Source: Giardia intestinalis (Eukaryota). From it: DNA of 10,211 bases. Shown in pieces: positions 1 through 10,211 of the stretch (its first letter is position 1; each line of letters starts with the position of its first letter). The translations under genes and the position numbers were made by a program. The stretch lies in assembly GCA_000002435.2 (NCBI GenBank), contig AACB03000017.1, one strand, 5' to 3'. Under the pieces are notes generated by a model, which saw only the letters and a list, made by a program, of their open reading frames with translations, had not been told where the DNA came from and searched no databases.

Positions 1-663
1 CTGTTTCCCCGGTCAACGAGGTGCGTCGATGGGCCAACCTGTCCTGGCATGCTGTTTCCCGGTCAACGAGGTGCGTCGATGGGCCTAGCTGGCCCGGAGT
101 CCCATTTCCCCGGTCAACGAGGTAGTCGATGGGCCTAGCTGGCCCGGAGTCCATTTCCCCGGTCAACGAGGTATGTCGATGGGCCAGCTGGCCGGCAGTC
201 TGTTCCCCGGTCAACGAGGTGCGTCGATGGGCCAACCTGTCCTGGCATGCTGTTTCCCCGGTCAACGAGGTGCGTCGATGGGCCTAGCGGCCCGGAGTCC
301 CATTTCCCGGTCAACGAGGTGCGTCGATGGGCCTAGCTGGCCCGGAGTCCCATTTTCCCCGGTCAACGAGGTGCGTCGATGGGCCAACCTGTCCTGGCAT
401 GCTGTTTCCCCGGTCAACGAGGTGCGTCGATGGGCCTAGCTGGCCCGGAGTCCCATTTCCCCGGTCAACGAGGTATGTCGATGGGCCTAGCTGGCCCGGA
501 GTCCCATTTCCCGGTCAACGAGGTGCGTCGATGGGCCAACCTGTCCTGGCATGCTGTTTCCCCGGTCAACGAGGTGCGTCGATGGGCCTAGCTGGCCCGG
601 AGTCCCATTTCCCCGGTCAACGAGGTGCGCGATGGGCCTAGCTGCCCGGAGTCCCATTTCCCC

Positions 664-714
664 GGTCAACGAGGTGCGTCGATGGGCCAACCTGTCCTGG
701 CATGCTGTTTCCCC
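664..714. repeat. Representative subfamily-A unit (variable block 'ccaacctgtcctggcatgctgtt')
   Basis: 'ggtcaacgaggtgcgtcgatgggccaacctgtcctggcatgctgtttcccc'. This is the majority type, roughly 95 of about 148 units by hand count. Confidence 0.9.
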
Positions 715-1564
715 GGTCAACGAGGTGCGTCGATGGGCCTAGCTGGCCCGGAGTCCATTTCCCGGTCAACGAGGTGCGTCGATGGGCCAACCTGTCCTGG
801 CATGCTGTTCCCCGGTCAACGAGGTGCGTCGATGGGCCAACCTGTCCTGGCATGCTGTTTCCCCGGTCAACGAGGTGCGTCGATGGGCCTAGCTGGCCCG
901 GCATCTTTTCCCCGGTCAACGAGGTGCGTCGATGGGCCAACCTGTCCTGGCATGCTGTTCCCCGGTCAACGAGGTATGTCGATGGGCCAACCTGTCCTGG
1001 CATGCTGTTTCCCCGGTCAACGAGGTGCGTCGATGGGCCAACTGCCCGGCATCTTTCCCCGGTCAACGAGGTATGTCGATGGGCCAACCTGTCCTGGCAT
1101 GCTGTTTCCCCGGTCAACGAGGTGCGTCGATGGGCCAACCTGTCCTGGCATGCTGTTTCCCCGGTCAACGAGGTGCGTCGATGGGCCTAGCTGGCCCGGA
1201 GTCCCATTTCCCCGGTCAACGAGGTATGTCGATGGGCCTAGCTGGCCCGGAGCCCATTTCCCCGGTCAACGAGGTGCGTCGATGGGCCAACCTGTCCTGG
1301 CATGCTGTTTCCCCGGTCAACGAGGTGCGTCGATGGGCCTAGCTGGCCCGGAGTCCCATTTCCCCGGTCAACGAGGTATGTCGATGGGCCTAGCTGGCCC
1401 GGAGTCCATTTCCCCGGTCAACGAGGTGCGTCGATGGGCCTAGCTGGCCGGAGTCCCTTTCCCCGGTCAACGAGGTGTCGATGGGCCTAGCTGGCCCGGA
1501 GTCCCATTTCCCCGGTCAACGAGGTGCGTCGATGGGCCAACCTGTCCTGGCATGCTGTTTCCCC

Positions 1565-1615
1565 GGTCAACGAGGTGCGTCGATGGGCCTAGCTGGCCCG
1601 GAGTCCCATTTCCCC
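1565..1615. repeat. Representative subfamily-B unit (variable block 'cctagctggcccggagtcccatt')
   Basis: 'ggtcaacgaggtgcgtcgatgggcctagctggcccggagtcccatttcccc'. It has the same 28-bp core. The 23-bp block differs from A at about 9 of 23 positions and is colinear, so it is a diverged version and not an insertion. Confidence 0.9.
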
Positions 1616-1766
1616 GGTCAACGAGGTATGTCGATGGGCCTAGCTGGCCCGGAGTCCCATTTCCCCGGTCAACGAGGTATCGATGGGCCTAGCTGGCCCG
1701 GAGTCCCATTTCCCCGGTCAACGAGGTGCGTCGATGGGCCAACCTGTCCTGGCATGCTGTTTCCCC

Positions 1767-2782
1767 GGTCAACGAGGTGCGTCGATGGGCCTAGCTGGCC
1801 CGGAGTCCCATTTCCCCGGTCAACGAGGTGCGTCGATGGGCCAACCTGTCCTGGCATGCTGTTTCCCCGGTCAACGAGGTGCGTCGATGGGCCAACCTGT
1901 CCTGGCATGCTGTTTCCCCGGTCAACGAGGTGCGTCGATGGGCCTAGCTGGCCCGGAGTCCCATTTCCCCGGTCAACGAGGTGCGTCGATGGGCCAACCT
2001 GTCCTGGCATGCTGTTTCCCCGGTCAACGAGGTGCGTCGATGGGCCAACCTGTCCTGGCATGCTGTTTCCCCGGTCAACGAGGTGCGTCGATGGGCCAAC
2101 CTGTCCTGGCATGCTGTTTCCCCGGTCAACGAGGTGCGTCGATGGGCCAACCTGTCCTGGCATGCTGTTTCCCCGGTCAACGAGGTGTCGATGGGCCAAC
2201 CTGTCCTGGCATGCTGTTTCCCCGGTCAACGAGGTGCGTCGATGGGCCAACCTGTCCTGGCATGCTGTTTCCCCGGTCAACGAGGTGCGTCGATGGGCCT
2301 AGCTGGCCCGGAGTCCCATTTCCCCGGTCAACGAGGTGCGTCGATGGGCCAACCTGTCCTGGCATGCTGTTTCCCCGGTCAACGAGGTGCGTCGATGGGC
2401 CAACCTGTCCTGGCATGCTGTTTCCCCGGTCAACGAGGTGCGTCGATGGGCCTAGCTGGCCCGGAGTCCCATTTCCCCGGTCAACGAGGTGCGTCGATGG
2501 GCCAACCTGTCCTGGCATGCTGTTTCCCCGGTCAACGAGGTGCGTCGATGGGCCAACCTGTCCTGGCATGCTGTTTCCCCGGTCAACGAGGTGCGTCGAT
2601 GGGCCAACCTGTCCTGGCATGCTGTTTCCCCGGTCAACGAGGTGCGTCGATGGGCCAACCTGTCCTGGCATGCTGTTTCCCCGGTCAACGAGGTGTCGAT
2701 GGGCCAACCTGTCCTGGCATGCTGTTTCCCCGGTCAACGAGGTGCGTCGATGGGCCAACCTGTCCTGGCATGCTGTTTCCCC
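1767..2782. repeat. Two tandem copies of a ~508-bp, 10-unit higher-order repeat (unit order B A A B A A A A A(48-bp deletion variant) A)
   Basis: Units starting at 1767 and at 2275 have the same order of unit types, including the same rare 48-bp 'ggtgtcgatggg' variant at the ninth position (about 2175 and about 2683). The offset is 508 bp, which is 9x51 plus the shortened unit within 1 bp. The ORF track shows identical 203-aa and 78-aa translations offset by 508 (1669..2280 vs 2177..2788, and 1944..2180 vs 2452..2688). Confidence 0.8.
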
Positions 2783-5700
2783 GGTCAACGAGGTGTCGAT
2801 GGGCCAACCTGTCCTGGCATGCTGTTTCCCCGGTCAACGAGGTGCGTCGATGGGCCAACCTGTCCTGGCATGCTGTTTCCCCGGTCAACGAGGTGCGTCG
2901 ATGGGCCTAGCTGGCCCGGAGTCCCATTTCCCCGGTCAACGAGGTGCGTCGATGGGCCAACCTGTCCTGGCATGCTGTTTCCCCGGTCAACGAGGTATCG
3001 ATGGGCCAACCTGTCCTGGCATGCTGTTTCCCCGGTCAACGAGGTGCGTCGATGGGCCAACCTGTCCTGGCATGCTGTTTCCCCGGTCAACGAGGTGCGT
3101 CGATGGGCCAACCTGTCCTGGCATGCTGTTTCCCCGGTCAACGAGGTGCGTCGATGGGCCAACCTGTCCTGGCATGCTGTTTCCCCGGTCAACGAGGTAT
3201 GTCGATGGGCCTAGCTGGCCCGGAGTCCCATTTCCCCGGTCAACGAGGTATGTCGATGGGCCAACCTGTCCTGGCATGCTGTTTCCCCGGTCAACGAGGT
3301 GCGTCGATGGGCCAACCTGTCCTGGCATGCTGTTTCCCCGGTCAACGAGGTGTCGATGGGCCAACCTGTCCTGGCATGCTGTTTCCCCGGTCAACGAGGT
3401 GCGTCGATGGGCCAACCTGTCCTGGCATGCTGTTTCCCCGGTCAACGAGGTGCGTCGATGGGCCAACCTGTCCTGGCATGCTGTTTCCCCGGTCAACGAG
3501 GTATGTCGATGGGCCTAGCTGGCCCGGAGTCCCATTTCCCCGGTCAACGAGGTGCGTCGATGGGCCAACCTGTCCTGGCATGCTGTTTCCCCGGTCAACG
3601 AGGTGCGTCGATGGGCCAACCTGTCCTGGCATGCTGTTTCCCCGGTCAACGAGGTGTCGATGGGCCTAGCTGGCCCGGAGTCCCATTTCCCCGGTCAACG
3701 AGGTGCGTCGATGGGCCTAGCTGGCCGGAGTCCCATTTCCCCGGTCAACGAGGTATGTCGATGGGCCTAGCTGGCCCGGAGTCCCATTTCCCCGGTCAAC
3801 GAGGTGCGTCGATGGGCCAACCTGTCCTGGCATGCTGTTTCCCCGGTCAACGAGGTGCGTCGATGGGCCTAGCTGGCCCGGAGTCCCATTTCCCCGGTCA
3901 ACGAGGTGCGTCGATGGGCCAACCTGTCCTGGCATGCTGTTTCCCCGGTCAACGAGGTGCGTCGATGGGCCAACCTGTCCTGGCATGCTGTTTCCCCGGT
4001 CAACGAGGTGCGTCGATGGGCCAACCTGTCCTGGCATGCTGTTCCCCGGTCAACGAGGTGCGTCGATGGGCCAACCTGTCCTGGCATGCTGTTTCCCCGG
4101 TCAACGAGGTATGTCGATGGGCCTAGCTGGCCCGGAGTCCCATTTCCCCGGTCAACGAGGTGCGTCGATGGGCCAACCTGTCCTGGCATGCTGTTTCCCC
4201 GGTCAACGAGGTGCGTCGATGGGCCAACCTGTCCTGGCATGCTGTTTCCCCGGTCAACGAGGTGCGTCGATGGGCCAACCTGTCCTGGCATGCTGTTTCC
4301 CCGGTCAACGAGGTATGTCGATGGGCCTAGCTGGCCCGGAGTCCCATTTCCCCGGTCAACGAGGTGCGTCGATGGGCCAACCTGTCCTGGCATGCTGTTT
4401 CCCCGGTCAACGAGGTGCGTCGATGGGCCAACCTGTCCTGGCATGCTGTTTCCCCGGTCAACGAGGTATGTCGATGGGCCTAGCTGGCCCGGAGTCCCAT
4501 TTCCCCGGTCAACGAGGTGCGTCGATGGGCCTAGCTGGCCCGGAGTCCCATTTCCCCGGTCAACGAGGTATGTCGATGGGCCTAGCTGGCCCGGAGTCCC
4601 ATTTCCCCGGTCAACGAGGTGCGTCGATGGGCCAACCTGTCCTGGCATGCTGTTTCCCCGGTCAACGAGGTGCGTCGATGGGCCTAGCTGGCCCGGAGTC
4701 CCATTTCCCCGGTCAACGAGGTGCGTCGATGGGCCAACCTGTCCTGGCATGCTGTTTCCCCGGTCAACGAGGTGCGTCGATGGGCCAACCTGTCCTGGCA
4801 TGCTGTTTCCCCGGTCAACGAGGTGCGTCGATGGGCCAACCTGTCCTGGCATGCTGTTTCCCCGGTCAACGAGGTGCGTCGATGGGCCAACCTGTCCTGG
4901 CATGCTGTTTCCCCGGTCAACGAGGTATGTCGATGGGCCTAGCTGGCCCGGAGTCCCATTTCCCCGGTCAACGAGGTGCGTCGATGGGCCAACCTGTCCT
5001 GGCATGCTGTTTCCCCGGTCAACGAGGTGCGTCGATGGGCCAACCTGTCCTGGCATGCTGTTTCCCCGGTCAACGAGGTATGTCGATGGGCCTAGCTGGC
5101 CCGGAGTCCCATTTCCCCGGTCAACGAGGTGCGTCGATGGGCCTAGCTGGCCCGGAGTCCCATTTCCCCGGTCAACGAGGTATGTCGATGGGCCTAGCTG
5201 GCCCGGAGTCCCATTTCCCCGGTCAACGAGGTGCGTCGATGGCCAACCTGTCCTGGCATGCGTTCCCGGTCACGAGGTGCGTCGATGGGCCAACCTGTCC
5301 TGGCATGCTGTTTCCCGGTCAACGAGGTGCGTCGATGGGCCAACCTGTCCTGGCATGCTGTTTCCCCGGTCAACGAGGTATGTCGATGGGCCTAGCTGGC
5401 CCGGAGTCCCATTTCCCCGGTCAACGAGGTGCGTCGATGGGCCAACCTGTCCTGGCATGCTGTTTCCCCGGTCACGAGGTCGCTAGCTGGCCCGGAGTCC
5501 CATTTCCCCGGTCAACGAGGTATGTCGATGGGCCTAGCTGGCCCGGAGTCCCATTTCCCCGGTCAACGAGGTGCGTCGATGGGCCAACCTGTCCTGGCAT
5601 GCTGTTTCCCCGGTCAACGAGGTGCGTCGATGGGCCAACCTGTCCTGGCATGCTGTTTCCCCGGTCAACGAGGTGCGTCGATGGGCCAACCTGTCCTGGC

Positions 5701-7538
5701 ATGCTGTTTCCCCGGTCAACGAGGTATGTCGATGGGCCTAGCTGGCCCGGAGTCCCATTTCCCCGGTCAACGAGGTGCGTCGATGGGCCAACCTGTCCTG
5801 GCATGCTGTTTCCCCGGTCAACGAGGTATGTCGATGGGCCTAGCTGGCCCGGAGTCCCATTTCCCCGGTCAACGAGGTGCGTCGATGGGCCAACCTGTCC
5901 TGGCATGCTGTTTCCCCGGTCAACGAGGTGCGTCGATGGGCCAACCTGTCCTGGCATGCTGTTTCCCGGTCAACGAGGTATGTCGATGGGCCTAGCTGGC
6001 CCGGAGTCCCATTTCCCCGGTCAACGAGGTGCGTCGATGGGCCTAGCTGGCCCGGAGTCCCATTTCCCCGGTCAACGAGGTGCGTCGATGGGCCTAGCTG
6101 GCCCGGAGTCCCATTTCCCCGGTCAACGAGGTGCGTCGATGGGCCAACCTGTCCTGGCATGCTGTTTCCCCGGTCAACGAGGTGCGTCGATGGGCCAACC
6201 TGTCCTGGCATGCTGTTTCCCCGGTCAACGAGGTGCGTCGATGGGCCAACCTGTCCTGGCATGCTGTTTCCCCGGTCAACGAGGTATGTCGATGGGCCTA
6301 GCTGGCCCGGAGTCCCATTTCCCCGGTCAACGAGGTGCGTCGATGGGCCAACCTGTCCTGGCATGCTGTTTCCCCGGTCAACGAGGTATGTCGATGGGCC
6401 AACCTGTCCTGGCATGCTGTTTCCCCGGTCAACGAGGTGCGTCGATGGGCCAACCTGTCCTGGCATGCTGTTTCCCCGGTCAACGAGGTGCGTCGATGGG
6501 CCAACCTGTCCTGGCATGCTGTTTCCCCGGTCAACGAGGTATGTCGATGGGCCAACCTGTCCTGGCATGCTGTTTCCCCGGTCAACGAGGTGCGTCGATG
6601 GGCCAACCTGTCCTGGCATGCTGTTTCCCCGGTCAACGAGGTATGTCGATGGGCCAACCTGTCCTGGCATGCTGTTTCCCCGGTCAACGAGGTATGTCGA
6701 TGGGCCTAGCTGGCCCGGAGTCCCATTTCCCCGGTCAACGAGGTATGTCGATGGGCCTAGCTGGCCCGGAGTCCCATTTCCCCGGTCAACGAGGTGCGTC
6801 GATGGGCCAACCTGTCCTGGCATGCTGTTTCCCCGGTCAACGAGGTGCGTCGATGGGCCAACCTGTCCTGGCATGCTGTTTCCCCGGTCAACGAGGTGCG
6901 TCGATGGGCCAACCTGTCCTGGCATGCTGTTTCCCCGGTCAACGAGGTATGTCGATGGGCCTAGCTGGCCCGGAGTCCCATTTCCCCGGTCAACGAGGTA
7001 TGTCGATGGGCCTAGCTGGCCCGGAGTCCCATTTCCCCGGTCAACGAGGTGCGTCGATGGGCCAACCTGTCCTGGCATGCTGTTTCCCCGGTCAACGAGG
7101 TGCGTCGATGGGCCAACCTGTCCTGGCATGCTGTTTCCCCGGTCAACGAGGTGCGTCGATGGGCCAACCTGTCCTGGCATGCTGTTTCCCCGGTCAACGA
7201 GGTGCGTCGATGGGCCAACCTGTCCTGGCATGCTGTTTCCCCGGTCAACGAGGTATGTCGATGGGCCAACCTGTCCTGGCATGCTGTTTCCCCGGTCAAC
7301 GAGGTGCGTCGATGGGCCAACCTGTCCTGGCATGCTGTTTCCCCGGTCAACGAGGTGCGTCGATGGGCCAACCTGTCCTGGCATGCTGTTTCCCCGGTCA
7401 ACGAGGTGCGTCGATGGGCCAACCTGTCCTGGCATGCTGTTTCCCCGGTCAACGAGGTGCGTCGATGGGCCAACCTGTCCTGGCATGCTGTTTCCCCGGT
7501 CAACGAGGTGCGTCGATGGGCCAACCTGTCCTGGCATG

Positions 7539-9583
7539 ATATCTATCTGAGACTTATCATTACTATACTTAGGTGGCATATTATATGTTCCTTTAACTAG
7601 ATAATGATTCAGATTAGAAACATTTTGGGCTCCAATGTCATAATAGCTAGATTGCTGATTCTTTTGATGACTCACTGAATTTTGCATCAAGGAGCAATTG
7701 ACACCCTTATCAACAAGCACTTGATTAATTTCGCAAGTAGAACCATTGTGAATAAATGCACCATCGTTTAAATCTCCGCTTAGATTTGTAGACGGATCAG
7801 CTAATGATTTAACACTCAAATGCTCCTCTTTCCATGCTACATGGCTTGATTGCTGGCTTAGGACTTCCGCCTCCCTCTGCGATTCGTACTGCATACTGGG
7901 ATCTTTGGCTTGTAAAACACTTCTGTTGCTAAGGTAATTAAGCTCAGGTGTGTAACCACTTAATTGGCGTGTGTTTTCATTTGGCAAAGTATCATACAAT
8001 GTGCTATCTTTAACAGAGAAAAGAGAGCTGTTATCTCCCCTATACCCTTGCTGGTTAGATACGCTTAGCTCCCGAGCGCCGGAGATACTTATGGTATTGT
8101 AAGGTGTATTGTCTTCATGAGATAGCTCCTTCACAGTCTCGTTTTCTCCCGGTTCTGGGTTAACAAGTGTGCTATAGCTCAAACCCCGTGCATGAGACGC
8201 CGTGATGGTAACATCATAAGGTGCTGATGGTGAAACCTGTGAACGCACGGGAAGATTTGGATCCCAACAATAGCTATGATCATACGGTGATACTGCTGTT
8301 AGAGGGGTGTTTATTTCTGACGTACTAATGTCGGACCTATCTGGCTTCTGCATCAATGTATTCTTATACTCCGTTGTATTATAAGTTGCTCTCTTCGTTT
8401 GTCGTGTGTAATCAGTCATATCATGGATTGTCTCAGCCTTGTCGTCTGGGCGCGCAGGGAATGTGTCTCCTGGCTTTCCGTATGCATAGCTCAGTACGCG
8501 GGCGCTTTTTACTAAAATCGGCCCGTCATTTCTATAAGGCGTGAGCCCCATATCGCTTCCAACTAGATTAGTTTCCATATCAGAAAAGATATCCTTCTGT
8601 GTTTTCTCTTTGTAGTCTTTTACGAGTTTATTCTCGTCTAACAATTCTTCTCTTGTTTGTGCTACCTTCTCCAGTTTATCTTTCCAATAGTTAGCCCATG
8701 ATATGTCGTCAGAAATAGTGACGGGCAGTGTTCCTGAAGTAGTACTGAGAACATTCTGTGTGTCTCCAGCCACAATTGCTGTGGGCATTGTAGCCAGCAG
8801 TGTTGCATTAGGTGTAAGTGCTATCTTCTTAGTGTCTTCAGATAACTGTACTTGGTGATCAATTGCGGTTGATTTCCCCGGTTCTATTGAATTACTTACA
8901 TTCCTAAATAATGTCTGTAAATTGCTTGTTGCAGCGGCACTATATCCATAGTTCTCTGGGCAGGTATTACTGTAATCGTTAGATTTGAATGTCTGCTGCT
9001 GAGACTTTGTCGCTACTAATTGATCTTGTGGAGCAGGTTTCGAAGAAGCTAAGTTGCCATATTGAGATTGGTGTAATGGGACAGTGATAAGGGGGTCTTG
9101 CTGAGATTTCGTCCAGTATGCCGGTGCTTTGGAAACCTGGCTTCGTAGGCTTTCAAACGCGGAGGGGAGCTGAGGAGGAGGCACGATGGGGCCGTGCTCC
9201 TTCAAATAGTCACGGTACACAGACCATGCTTTATGTATTCGTGGATGCTTGAGTAACTCATCTGCAGGAGGACGACTCCTGGGGTTATGATCGAGAAGCA
9301 GATTAATTATTCTGGTTAGCTCTGCACTGTAGCCGTGATATGATGTCTTTACAAAGGAACTGAGAGATTGTATGGCTTCCTGCTTGTTGGCACATGTCTC
9401 TCTGTACCGGCGAAGCGTGCACATTTCGTGTAGTACACATCCTAACATGAACATGTCGACCTTCGCCCCATACTTATGCCCCAAGAGCATTTCAGGCGCC
9501 ATGTAAACATAATCGCCAACCTGTTCAGAGATCTCAGACGCCTGACTCAAAGAGACTGCTTGACGCATACCGCCTAAAACCAC
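7539..9583 (-). CDS. Segment 3 of NEK-like kinase homolog: activation segment, C-lobe (subdomains VII to XI) and a ~560-aa low-complexity tail; the open frame continues into the satellite to 5840
   Basis: The ORF-track entry 5840..9583 begins at a GTG, which is an ORF-caller artefact; the frame is open from the stop at 9593-9595. 'VVLGGMRQAVSLSQASEISEQVGDYVYMAPE' has A-P-E at 9491-9499. 'DMFMLGCVLHEMCTL' is subdomain IX, close to NEK 'GCVLYELCTL'. 'HNPRSRPPADELLKHPRI' is subdomain XI. The unique part ends at 7539, and the last unique codons read ...KSQIDI before the repeat. Confidence 0.75.
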
Positions 9584-9660
9584 GCTGTGTTGTTAGACAA
9601 GAATATGGTTTCTGGACGTATGTTTCGATGAATTACTATTCCGACTTCGGGACAATTCAA
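9574..9660 (-). other. Catalytic-loop segment of the same kinase, encoded in a different minus-strand frame: 'LNCPEVGIVIHRNIRPETIFLSNNTAWF'
   Basis: Hand translation of the minus strand between the two ORF-track ORFs. The H-R-N codons are at 9622-9630. They align to the kinase HRDLKPENIFL catalytic loop, with D->N, K->R and N->T. The segment is bounded by a stop immediately upstream (minus-strand 'taa' at plus 9661-9663) and 'tag' at 9574-9576, so it joins the flanking segments only if a 1-nt shift is assumed at each end. Confidence 0.6.
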
Positions 9661-10061
9661 TTATAAGGTGAATGTAGGTAGGCAAGCACATCGCAGAGCT
9701 GGGCAAGAACCATCCAAATAGTGCTTTCGTCATAGAGATGCGCAGCCTCAAATCTGTCAACGATTTGCTGCCGTAAGCTCTGGCTTAAATATGCATCCAT
9801 GAAGACATAGTACGTGTGGCGGAACTGGTCGTGGAAAACATTATGAATCTGAAGAATTCCTGGGTGCTGAAGTCTCTGTGTTAGTTGATACTGTCGATCT
9901 ACATGCTCTCGAAGAGTAGTTGCAGATTGAGTGTAGTCTATAACTTTGCAGACAACGTCGTGTGAGGTCCACGTATCGTGCGCCCAATGAATCCTAGAAT
10001 GCTGCCCATGGGTAAGAAGAGGCCCAAGGCGGTACCTATCCATCAGGAGAGTCGTGAGCAT
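9657..10061 (-). CDS. Exon/segment 1 of NEK (NIMA-related)-like protein kinase homolog: N-lobe, kinase subdomains I to VIa; frame is interrupted at its 3' end
   Basis: 134-aa ORF. 'YRLGPLLTHGQHSRI' aligns to the NEK G-loop region but lacks GxGxxG. 'VVCKVIDY' corresponds to the VAIK lysine plus the NEK-typical K-E-L-D-Y context. 'HPGILQIHNVF' is subdomain IV, 'YYVFMDAY' is the hinge, and 'LAQLCDVLAYLHS' is subdomain VIa. It is the first in-frame ATG after an upstream stop, 4 codons upstream. The ORF stops 'TGA' at 9657-9659 immediately before the catalytic loop. Confidence 0.8.
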   Translation of the reverse strand: MLTTLLMDRYRLGPLLTHGQHSRIHWAHDTWTSHDVVCKVIDYTQSATTLREHVDRQYQLTQRLQHPGILQIHNVFHDQFRHTYYVFMDAYLSQSLRQQIVDRFEAAHLYDESTIWMVLAQLCDVLAYLHSPYN

Positions 10062-10211
10062 TGAGAGGCAAATTTAAGAATAAATTTACTCATTTGGATA
10101 GCATCATCGACGAATTGAGACATATATGGTGTTTTGACACTAAATACAGAAGAATCAAGCCAATTTCTTTTCAAGATAGGCGATGCTTGAGCAGAATTGT
10201 TGTCTTGTTCT
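10062..10211 (-). promoter_or_regulatory. AT-rich 5' flank of the kinase gene; possible core promoter, with a TATA-like 'catatatg' at about 10121-10128
   Basis: On the minus strand the sequence immediately upstream of the ATG is 'aaatgagtaaatttattcttaaatttgcctctca', which is AT-rich. 'atatat' lies about 62 nt upstream of the ATG. This is suggestive only. No organism-specific promoter model was applied. Confidence 0.2.

Follow-up and report, generated by a model that had tools for sequence, protein, structure and literature searches.

The GC-rich tandem array beside a Giardia intestinalis kinase gene as its predicted C-terminal coding repeat tail

In contig AACB03000017.1 of Giardia intestinalis (assembly GCA_000002435.2) a long GC-rich tandem array ends, to the base, against AT-richer unique DNA, and the question is what kind of boundary this is. 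The window analyzed here is the whole stretch of 10,211 nt, of which the array fills positions 1-7538. The initial annotation regarded the array as a satellite adjoining the 3' end of a kinase gene, with an edge so homogeneous that a recent event was suspected. We find a different arrangement very probable, in which the array is the coding 17-residue repeat tail of a NEK-type kinase encoded on the minus strand, joined to the rest of the gene at an old in-frame boundary, with units that evolve in concert and have been homogenised up to the edge, and with a decay on the far side that is mainly technical.

An open reading frame across the junction

It is clear from the minus strand that the array belongs to the coding sequence of the kinase. 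An open reading frame (ORF) of 1247 aa at 9583..5840 covers the kinase C-lobe, with 681 non-repetitive codons, and crosses 7539/7538 in frame, so that the supposed satellite is itself kinase coding sequence. The junction peptide reads ...KYSNDKSQIDI followed by MPGQVGPSTHLVDRGNS MPGQ..., and position 7538 supplies the last base of the Ile codon that joins ...SQIDI to MPGQ.... Each unit measures 51 nt or 17 codons, a multiple of three that is in frame with the flanking ORF. After 30 units the frame is lost in a 50-nt unit at 5932-5981 (CCCC shortened to CCC), and a stop follows at 5840-5842. The Pfam model Pkinase (PF00069, cut-off 31.7) matched both halves of the kinase domain, with 39.1 bits for the N-lobe ORF 10061..9657 (profile positions 6-116) and 50.5 bits for the C-lobe ORF (profile positions 147-261). 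Among the Pfam matches of the long ORF at E ≤ 0.01 only kinase models were present, and no ankyrin, coiled-coil or other accessory domain was found.

According to Tandem Repeats Finder (TRF), positions 1-7538 form one single tandem array with a period of 51, 149 copies and 89% matches; the array continues past the start of the window, and the copy number is therefore at least 149. Cutting at a conserved anchor gave 148 units, of which 115 belong to four exact 51-mers. Type A units carry ...CCAACCTGTCCTGGCATGCTG... and encode the peptide (S)MPGQVGPST(H/Y)LVDRGN, and type B units carry ...CCTAGCTGGCCCGGAGTCCCA... and encode (G)TPGQLGPST(H/Y)LVDRGN. A linked 2-nt GC/AT variant is also found among the units, the resulting Tyr variant (ACA TAC) mainly on those of B type. 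An 11-unit string of types (aadaaaacadc) is present twice at a distance of 16 units; another pattern, of 10 units (aaaacaaca plus a 49-nt unit), recurs in tandem within the array. The share of B-type units is higher far from the junction (18 of 30 units in 1-1500 vs. 7 of 29 in 6001-7538), with type A units at 12 of 30 and 22 of 29 in the same two intervals, and this rise of the B type away from the junction is the one real gradient that remains after the considerations given below. The GC content is about 0.62-0.65 within the array and 0.38-0.50 to its right, and at the junction itself it drops from about 0.62 to about 0.38-0.45.

The 51-bp unit has stop codons in only one of its six frames, counted over both strands of 1-7538, the other five being free of them, and many long spurious ORFs result, such as one of 1235 aa on the plus strand at 3832-7539. 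A gene caller would be misled by these stop-free frames.

The boundary and the repeat in assemblages E and B

A protein search with the 681 unique residues gave two full-length relatives, both at 100% coverage. One is P0001, named 'Kinase, NEK [Giardia lamblia P15]' (assemblage E), with 82% aa identity over the unique part, and the other is P0002, a kinase of Giardia duodenalis assemblage B, with 74% identity over the same part. In both proteins the repeat begins at the same codon position as in the window, the junction reading ...SNDRSQINNT LGQLGPSTHLVDRGNG TPGQVGPSTHLVDRGNS MPGQ... in P15 and ...NTDKSQTNSA LIQLAPSTHLVDRGNS MPGQMTPSAHLVDRGNG... in assemblage B. The DNA of the window and of the corresponding loci L001 (P15) and L002 (assemblage B) is colinear and ungapped across the junction, and the nucleotide identities of 86% to P15 and 75% to assemblage B suggest that the lineage of the window is nearer to assemblage E than to B, which would fit assemblage A. 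The unique part has evolved with a dN/dS ratio (non-synonymous over synonymous divergence) of 0.15 at a dS of 0.55 relative to P15, and of 0.09 at a dS of 1.64 relative to assemblage B. Comparison of the orthologous loci had been advised as a check on whether the kinase has a normal 3' end elsewhere; in both relatives the gene continues into the repeat, and a short tail then leads from the array to a stop codon.

Because the in-frame ORF is accompanied by the same repeat in both orthologues, we take the array to be the C-terminal repeat domain of a Nek-type kinase, and because the adjacency of unique and repetitive sequence is shared by three assemblages (at the dS values given above) it is old. 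The junction at 7538/7539 is thus, as judged from these alignments, an ancient in-frame domain boundary within a coding sequence, and the recent insertion, recombination or mis-join once proposed for it is contradicted by a repeat that starts at the same aligned codon in P15 and in assemblage B.

The changes between the repeat units themselves point in the same direction. The A unit of the window and the major unit of P15 differ at 7 of 51 nt, and none of the seven alters the amino acid in the MPGQVGPSTHLVDRGNS (MPGQ) frame, so that each is synonymous there. The antisense frame with coincident third codon positions gives six synonymous and one non-synonymous change, as expected, and in the remaining four frames none of the changes is synonymous. 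For the B unit of the window and the TPGQ unit of P15 the numbers are six synonymous and one non-synonymous, and the comparison of the unit with assemblage B gives six synonymous and four non-synonymous codon changes. Synonymous variants fixed by lineage, together with a constant peptide, are the apparent signature of concerted evolution under purifying selection.

In the explanation that we prefer, the C-terminal domain of a NEK-family gene would be a long coding minisatellite, composed of MPGQVGPSTHLVDRGNS and its TPGQL variant, with units that evolve in concert via unequal exchange, conversion or slippage, a mechanism that we infer. Under such concerted evolution each lineage would fix its own synonymous variants, and the peptide would stay constant under purifying selection. 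Unequal exchange would fit the duplicated multi-unit strings, among them the 11-unit pattern mentioned above. The array as a whole is an ordinary coding minisatellite, unusually long.

The unit numbers differ widely, with at least 149 in the window vs. about 6 in P15 and about 3 in assemblage B, the latter two being possibly assembly collapses, and the P15 contig stops about 100 nt beyond the gene. The published P15 gene model is frameshifted within the repeat, in a 50-nt unit (AACG-GACACC) at L001 12690-12700. Its annotated C-terminus (…GHRARWVRPRTSLIGETA…) is an out-of-frame reading, and in frame the array would end in MPGQVGCF followed by the stop codon.

The homogeneous edge and the irregular units

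The edge is as homogeneous as the initial annotation had it. The ten units nearest to the junction are all of type A and near-identical, the sole difference being GC to AT at 7255-7256, which changes Thr-His to Thr-Tyr; the last B-specific segment ends at about 7031, before the A units at 7053-7538. The last unit terminates after ...CCTGGCATG at 7538 and is followed by ATATCTATCTGAGAC. The absence of transitional units was likewise borne out, and repeat-derived DNA was not detected past 7539, where 7539-7640, aligned locally with the consensus unit in three tandem copies, scored 6 at best, compared with 6.97 ± 1.17 for shuffled sequences. No tile of unique DNA scored above 12 against the consensus unit, and a hidden Markov model (HMM) of the 17-aa unit had no match in the 681 unique residues, with appended control units scoring 43.8 bits each. 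A degenerate unit hidden in ...NMPPKYSNDKSQIDI, where M, P and (I)D can be aligned by eye, was considered and rejected, both the HMM and the DNA tests being null and the motif not being retained in assemblage B.

In the window the first unit is the bulk A unit, base for base, and in the two orthologues it is divergent and B-like (TLGQLGPS... in P15 and ALIQLAPS... in assemblage B). It would follow that homogenisation has reached the first unit in this lineage, and the pattern points to a lineage-specific homogenisation up to the very edge of the array. With even the first unit overwritten the junction would become sharp to the base, and degenerate edge units would be absent because of selection on the translated repeat together with ongoing homogenisation. 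What is left of the earlier proposal of an expansion at this edge is the homogenisation of the first unit to the bulk A type, and the recent fusion event coupled with it falls away.

In addition, the A-only edge may stem from a real event in which a single A unit was recently and locally amplified at the promoter-proximal end, through slippage or unequal sister-chromatid exchange. We put this somewhat short of an even chance, and it is compatible with the explanation above, to which it would add a detail. A run of ten A units at this given end has a P of about 0.006-0.01 (by shuffling or a first-order model), of modest weight since the junction end was singled out after inspection, and both the A type of the first unit, divergent and B-like in P15 and assemblage B, and the excess of type A units in 6001-7538 over 1-1500 agree with such an amplification. 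However, a run of that length appears somewhere in the array in 26% of shuffles (P 0.26), another run of seven A units is present elsewhere in the array, and the older H to Y variant in one of the edge units shows that the run did not arise in one clonal burst.

At the other end of the array the picture is different. None of the 29 units in 6001-7538 deviates from 51 nt, and the number of such units is 4 of 29 in 4501-6000, 4 of 29 in 3001-4500, 5 of 30 in 1501-3000, and 17 of 30 in 1-1500. The claim that the left ~1.5 kb is the more degenerate part thus holds with respect to unit length, but the degeneracy consists of deletions with few substitutions. In the interval 1-1700 we counted 31 nt deleted, 2 inserted and 9 substituted, and in the rest of the array 21 nt deleted and 1 substituted, plus one hybrid unit, so that the irregular units overall have 52 nt deleted vs. 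10 substituted. Most are deletions of 1-2 nt, and 15 of the 27 single-base deletions lie in runs of three or more bases, which make up 20-31% of the unit positions.

Deletions of the same kind are present in the unique coding DNA (2.7 kb), which has lost three single bases relative to both orthologues. An A is lost at 9661-9662 (TATAAATTG to TATAATTG), one base is lost at about 9581 (9581/9582), and a further A is lost in the run at 10093-10095 on the minus strand, where the stop codon of the upstream kinase gene at 10086-10088 is abolished. The 26 codons between the first two deletions are perfectly conserved in the third frame, and the kinase gene is thereby split into three frames. An intron at 9583-9657 was ruled out by the two 1-nt deletions relative to both orthologues and by these 26 conserved codons. 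The pair of deletions at 9581-9663 is either long-read error or a very recent inactivation.

Some irregular units are of a particular kind. Seven 49-nt units in 1630-3655 share one 2-nt deletion (GAGGT[GC]GTCG), which may be a real variant that has been propagated or a systematic basecalling error, and two of the 49-nt units (at 2138 and 2646) lie 508 nt apart inside an apparent duplicated 10-unit block. A cluster of damage at 5235-5523 comprises five separate 1-nt deletions in one unit (5235-5280) and, within 5433-5523, a hybrid 40-nt unit with an A-type start fused to a B-type body.

Homopolymer frameshifts and gaps at long repeats have been documented for the PacBio genome of Giardia WB (PMC7000408). 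Since the damage in the window is dominated by deletions, enriched in homopolymers and worse away from the unique anchor, and since real decay would be dominated by substitutions, the degeneracy toward the start of the window would mainly be long-read consensus error. The deletions would grow in number with the distance from the unique DNA, where fewer reads can be placed.

Several points weigh against our interpretation. As it stands in the window the gene is broken: the kinase domain is frameshifted twice, and after 30 intact repeats a further frameshift is followed by a stop, all of which are presumed errors. It is odd that random error should have placed two of the three deletions in the unique region only about 80 nt apart, and the 2-nt deletion shared by seven units, some of them in duplicated blocks, could be real. 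With five of the six unit frames devoid of stops an open frame is by itself weak proof of coding, and the scale of the expansion is uncertain, as the 3 and 6 units of the orthologues may be products of collapsed assemblies.

The main rival to a technical origin of the damage, and in our judgement an improbable one, is a lineage-specific pseudogene, in which real frameshifts at about 9662 and about 9581 freed the array to expand to at least 149 units and to gather real indels, and in which the part near the junction is pristine as the most recently amplified one. The two frameshifts fall within about 80 nt of the catalytic loop, frame-breaking units occur throughout the array and in part inside duplicated multi-unit blocks, the copy number is far above that of the orthologue assemblies, and Nek fragments, Nek pseudogenes and a rapid Nek turnover are on record for Giardia (Manning et al., PMC3218828). 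A decaying gene should, however, be led by substitutions, and here 10 substituted nucleotides stand against 52 deleted and 2 inserted, enriched in homopolymers. Codons that lie between the kinase frameshifts or beyond them are fully conserved, 681 of them free of stops and with a dN/dS of 0.15, a third deletion of like kind lies in the neighbouring gene, and the smooth increase of indels with the distance from unique DNA fits consensus quality.

Least credible, and to our minds close to dismissed, is a recent structural event or artefact, that is, a non-coding satellite inserted or recombined at the 3' end of the kinase gene or an assembler mis-join, for although the junction is base-sharp and devoid of transitional units, the GC content jumps (0.62 vs. 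0.38-0.45) and the edge units are identical, two independently sequenced assemblages share the junction in an ungapped alignment, the divergence of the A unit from P15 is purely synonymous in the gene frame, and dS values of 0.55 and 1.64 make the adjacency old.

The kinase, its neighbours and its tail

The coordinates of the features in the window are collected in Table 1.

Table 1 Features of the window, given as positions of the strand shown with the coding strand in brackets.
Feature	Position	Strand	Basis
51-bp (17-codon) tandem array, types A and B	1..7538	(-)	TRF, unit parsing, translation
Part of the array uninterrupted in the kinase frame, 30 intact 17-aa units	5840..7538	(-)	ORF 9583..5840
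Flagged edge, 9.5 type A units, first repeats of the predicted protein tail	7053..7538	(-)	unit parsing
Junction of unique and repeat sequence, in frame, colinear with both orthologues	7538..7539	(-)	ORF, DNA alignment
Unique coding sequence, 681 codons: kinase C-lobe (Pkinase 147-261) and ~565-aa non-repetitive region	7539..9583	(-)	
Catalytic-loop segment (…LNCPEVGIVIHRNIRPETIFLSNNTA), third frame, between two 1-nt deletions	9584..9656	(-)	DNA alignment, translation
Kinase N-lobe, ATG 10061-10059; premature end at 9657-9659 from the first deletion	9657..10061	(-)	
Short conserved AT-rich intergenic stretch and 3' end of the upstream kinase gene	10062..10211	(-)	alignment, synteny

By its orthology to the P15 protein, which was named 'Kinase, NEK' by NCBI, the gene is a predicted member of the Giardia NEK family. 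It is the last of five consecutive kinase genes on the same strand (L001 1869-9976 and L002 1985-9977), and in both loci this run lies downstream of a gene for HMG-CoA synthase, forming a conserved tandem kinase cluster. The catalytic motifs were read by eye against the Pfam coordinates, and in the window as well as in both orthologues, and hence in all three assemblages, HRNIRPE is found in place of HRD and ILGGMRQ at the position expected for DFG. Manning et al. took K72, D166 (HRD) and D184 (DFG) as their criterion for activity, by which 71% of the Giardia Neks are inactive (PMC3218828). The kinase described here is probably a pseudokinase that has lost its catalytic activity.

In an exhaustive representative search the distant relatives P0007 and P0012 share the kinase domain with an HRNI(R/N)P loop and are without the repeat, and no other protein with this 17-aa repeat was found in that search. 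P0008 and P0035 matched the repeat region and were rejected as unrelated repeat proteins. An 18-aa tandem repeat (GPMDHLDDKIAKVMRGLA) in P0008 (215 aa) aligns with the GPSTHLVDRG core at an E of 1e-13, a value inflated by repetition, and its likeness to the Giardia unit is probably chance or convergence. A search of a set of 5.8 billion proteins with the repeat peptide gave 0 matches and is uninformative, as the repeat-bearing P0001 was also missed, and a protein search with the N-lobe, which likewise missed P0001, is uninformative through the same limit of the tool. Exact-sequence look-ups of the ORFs of the window found none on record, and metagenome scans with the junction 29-mer and with the unit core gave 0 matches each.

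A single-sequence AlphaFold2 model of the tail has two short strands per 17-aa unit, stacked in a solenoid-like manner, with a pLDDT (the model's per-residue confidence) of 75-88. As a control, nine copies of the out-of-frame translation CQDRLAHRRTSLTGETA (window 7078-7536, minus strand, +1 frame) were modelled as a single long helix with a pLDDT of 89, higher than for the true frame. AlphaFold2 has a known tendency to predict confident beta-solenoids too readily from perfect repeats (PMC11795689), and we discounted the structure model as functional evidence since the out-of-frame control was the more confident one. The out-of-frame helix is in its own right an example against trusting single-sequence confidence on perfect repeats. 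A Foldseek search of the PDB had no significant match (best E 0.36, TM about 0.1-0.2), and the top matches, all non-significant, were left-handed beta-helix (LbH) enzymes. The two modelled strands per 17-aa unit resemble the coil of beta-solenoid proteins, which takes about 16-18 residues, a likeness that is predicted only, but the tail differs from these proteins in that none of its structural matches was significant (E ≥ 0.36).

Coding minisatellites that evolve in concert include mucin variable number tandem repeats (VNTRs), yeast FLO adhesins and the repeat antigens of Plasmodium, Trypanosoma and Leishmania. With such protein VNTRs the array shares the in-frame unit, near-identity within the lineage, lineage-fixed synonymous changes and duplicated blocks. 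It differs from them in that the host is an intracellular-type pseudokinase and not a surface or secreted antigen, and in that its peptide, instead of diversifying, shows strict conservation (for the A unit, dN = 0 vs. P15). Non-coding satellites with degenerate edges also form long head-to-tail arrays, with interspersed subfamilies (two here) and higher-order patterns, but this array is coding, under apparent purifying selection, bounded at a conserved position and marked by deletions instead of substitutions.

The expansion of the Giardia NEK family consists mostly of catalytically inactive Neks (Manning et al. 2011, PMC3218828). The gene resembles these in the naming of its orthologues, the Pkinase match, the HRN and LGG motifs and the tandem kinase cluster; it differs in that the usual ankyrin repeats or coiled coil were not detected by Pfam, and in the unique region of about 565 aa followed by a very long 17-aa repeat. 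The gene is known already, its orthologues being annotated as Nek kinases with short repeat tails visible in the deposited proteins. The scale of the array (at least 149 units and at least 7.5 kb, reaching beyond the window) appears to be unreported, and the 17-aa repeat is not mentioned in any of the papers searched, whether for its peptide string or for tandem repeats and minisatellites of Giardia. Short-read assemblies probably under-represent arrays of this type (PMC6868369). In the published models of P15 and assemblage B the tail is cut short or collapsed, and it would therefore be invisible in current annotations and kinome surveys.

The locus carries a caution for similar cases, since a GC-rich array beside AT-richer DNA had the look of a satellite fusion and proved to be a repeat domain of the gene itself, read from the opposite strand, and since the seemingly 'old' end of the array is most likely a gradient in sequencing quality. 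It also draws attention to a conserved and probable Nek pseudokinase with an exceptionally long and strictly conserved 17-aa repeat tail. Tryptic peptides predicted to be diagnostic for the tail are GNSMPGQVGPSTHLVDR, GNGTPGQLGPSTYLVDR and GNGTPGQLGPSTHLVDR, and strain typing could use the array as a natural VNTR marker, should the copy number vary between strains. That the array is translated along its full length is a prediction. The larger claim is a protein of more than 3,300 aa, a Nek pseudokinase with a tail of at least 2,500 aa in at least 149 near-identical units, massively expanded compared with assemblages E and B, invariant in its peptide and forming a regular structural element; this we regard as speculative and rather unlikely. 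If it is true, the extended tail might act, for example, as a fibre or ruler in the Giardia cytoskeleton.

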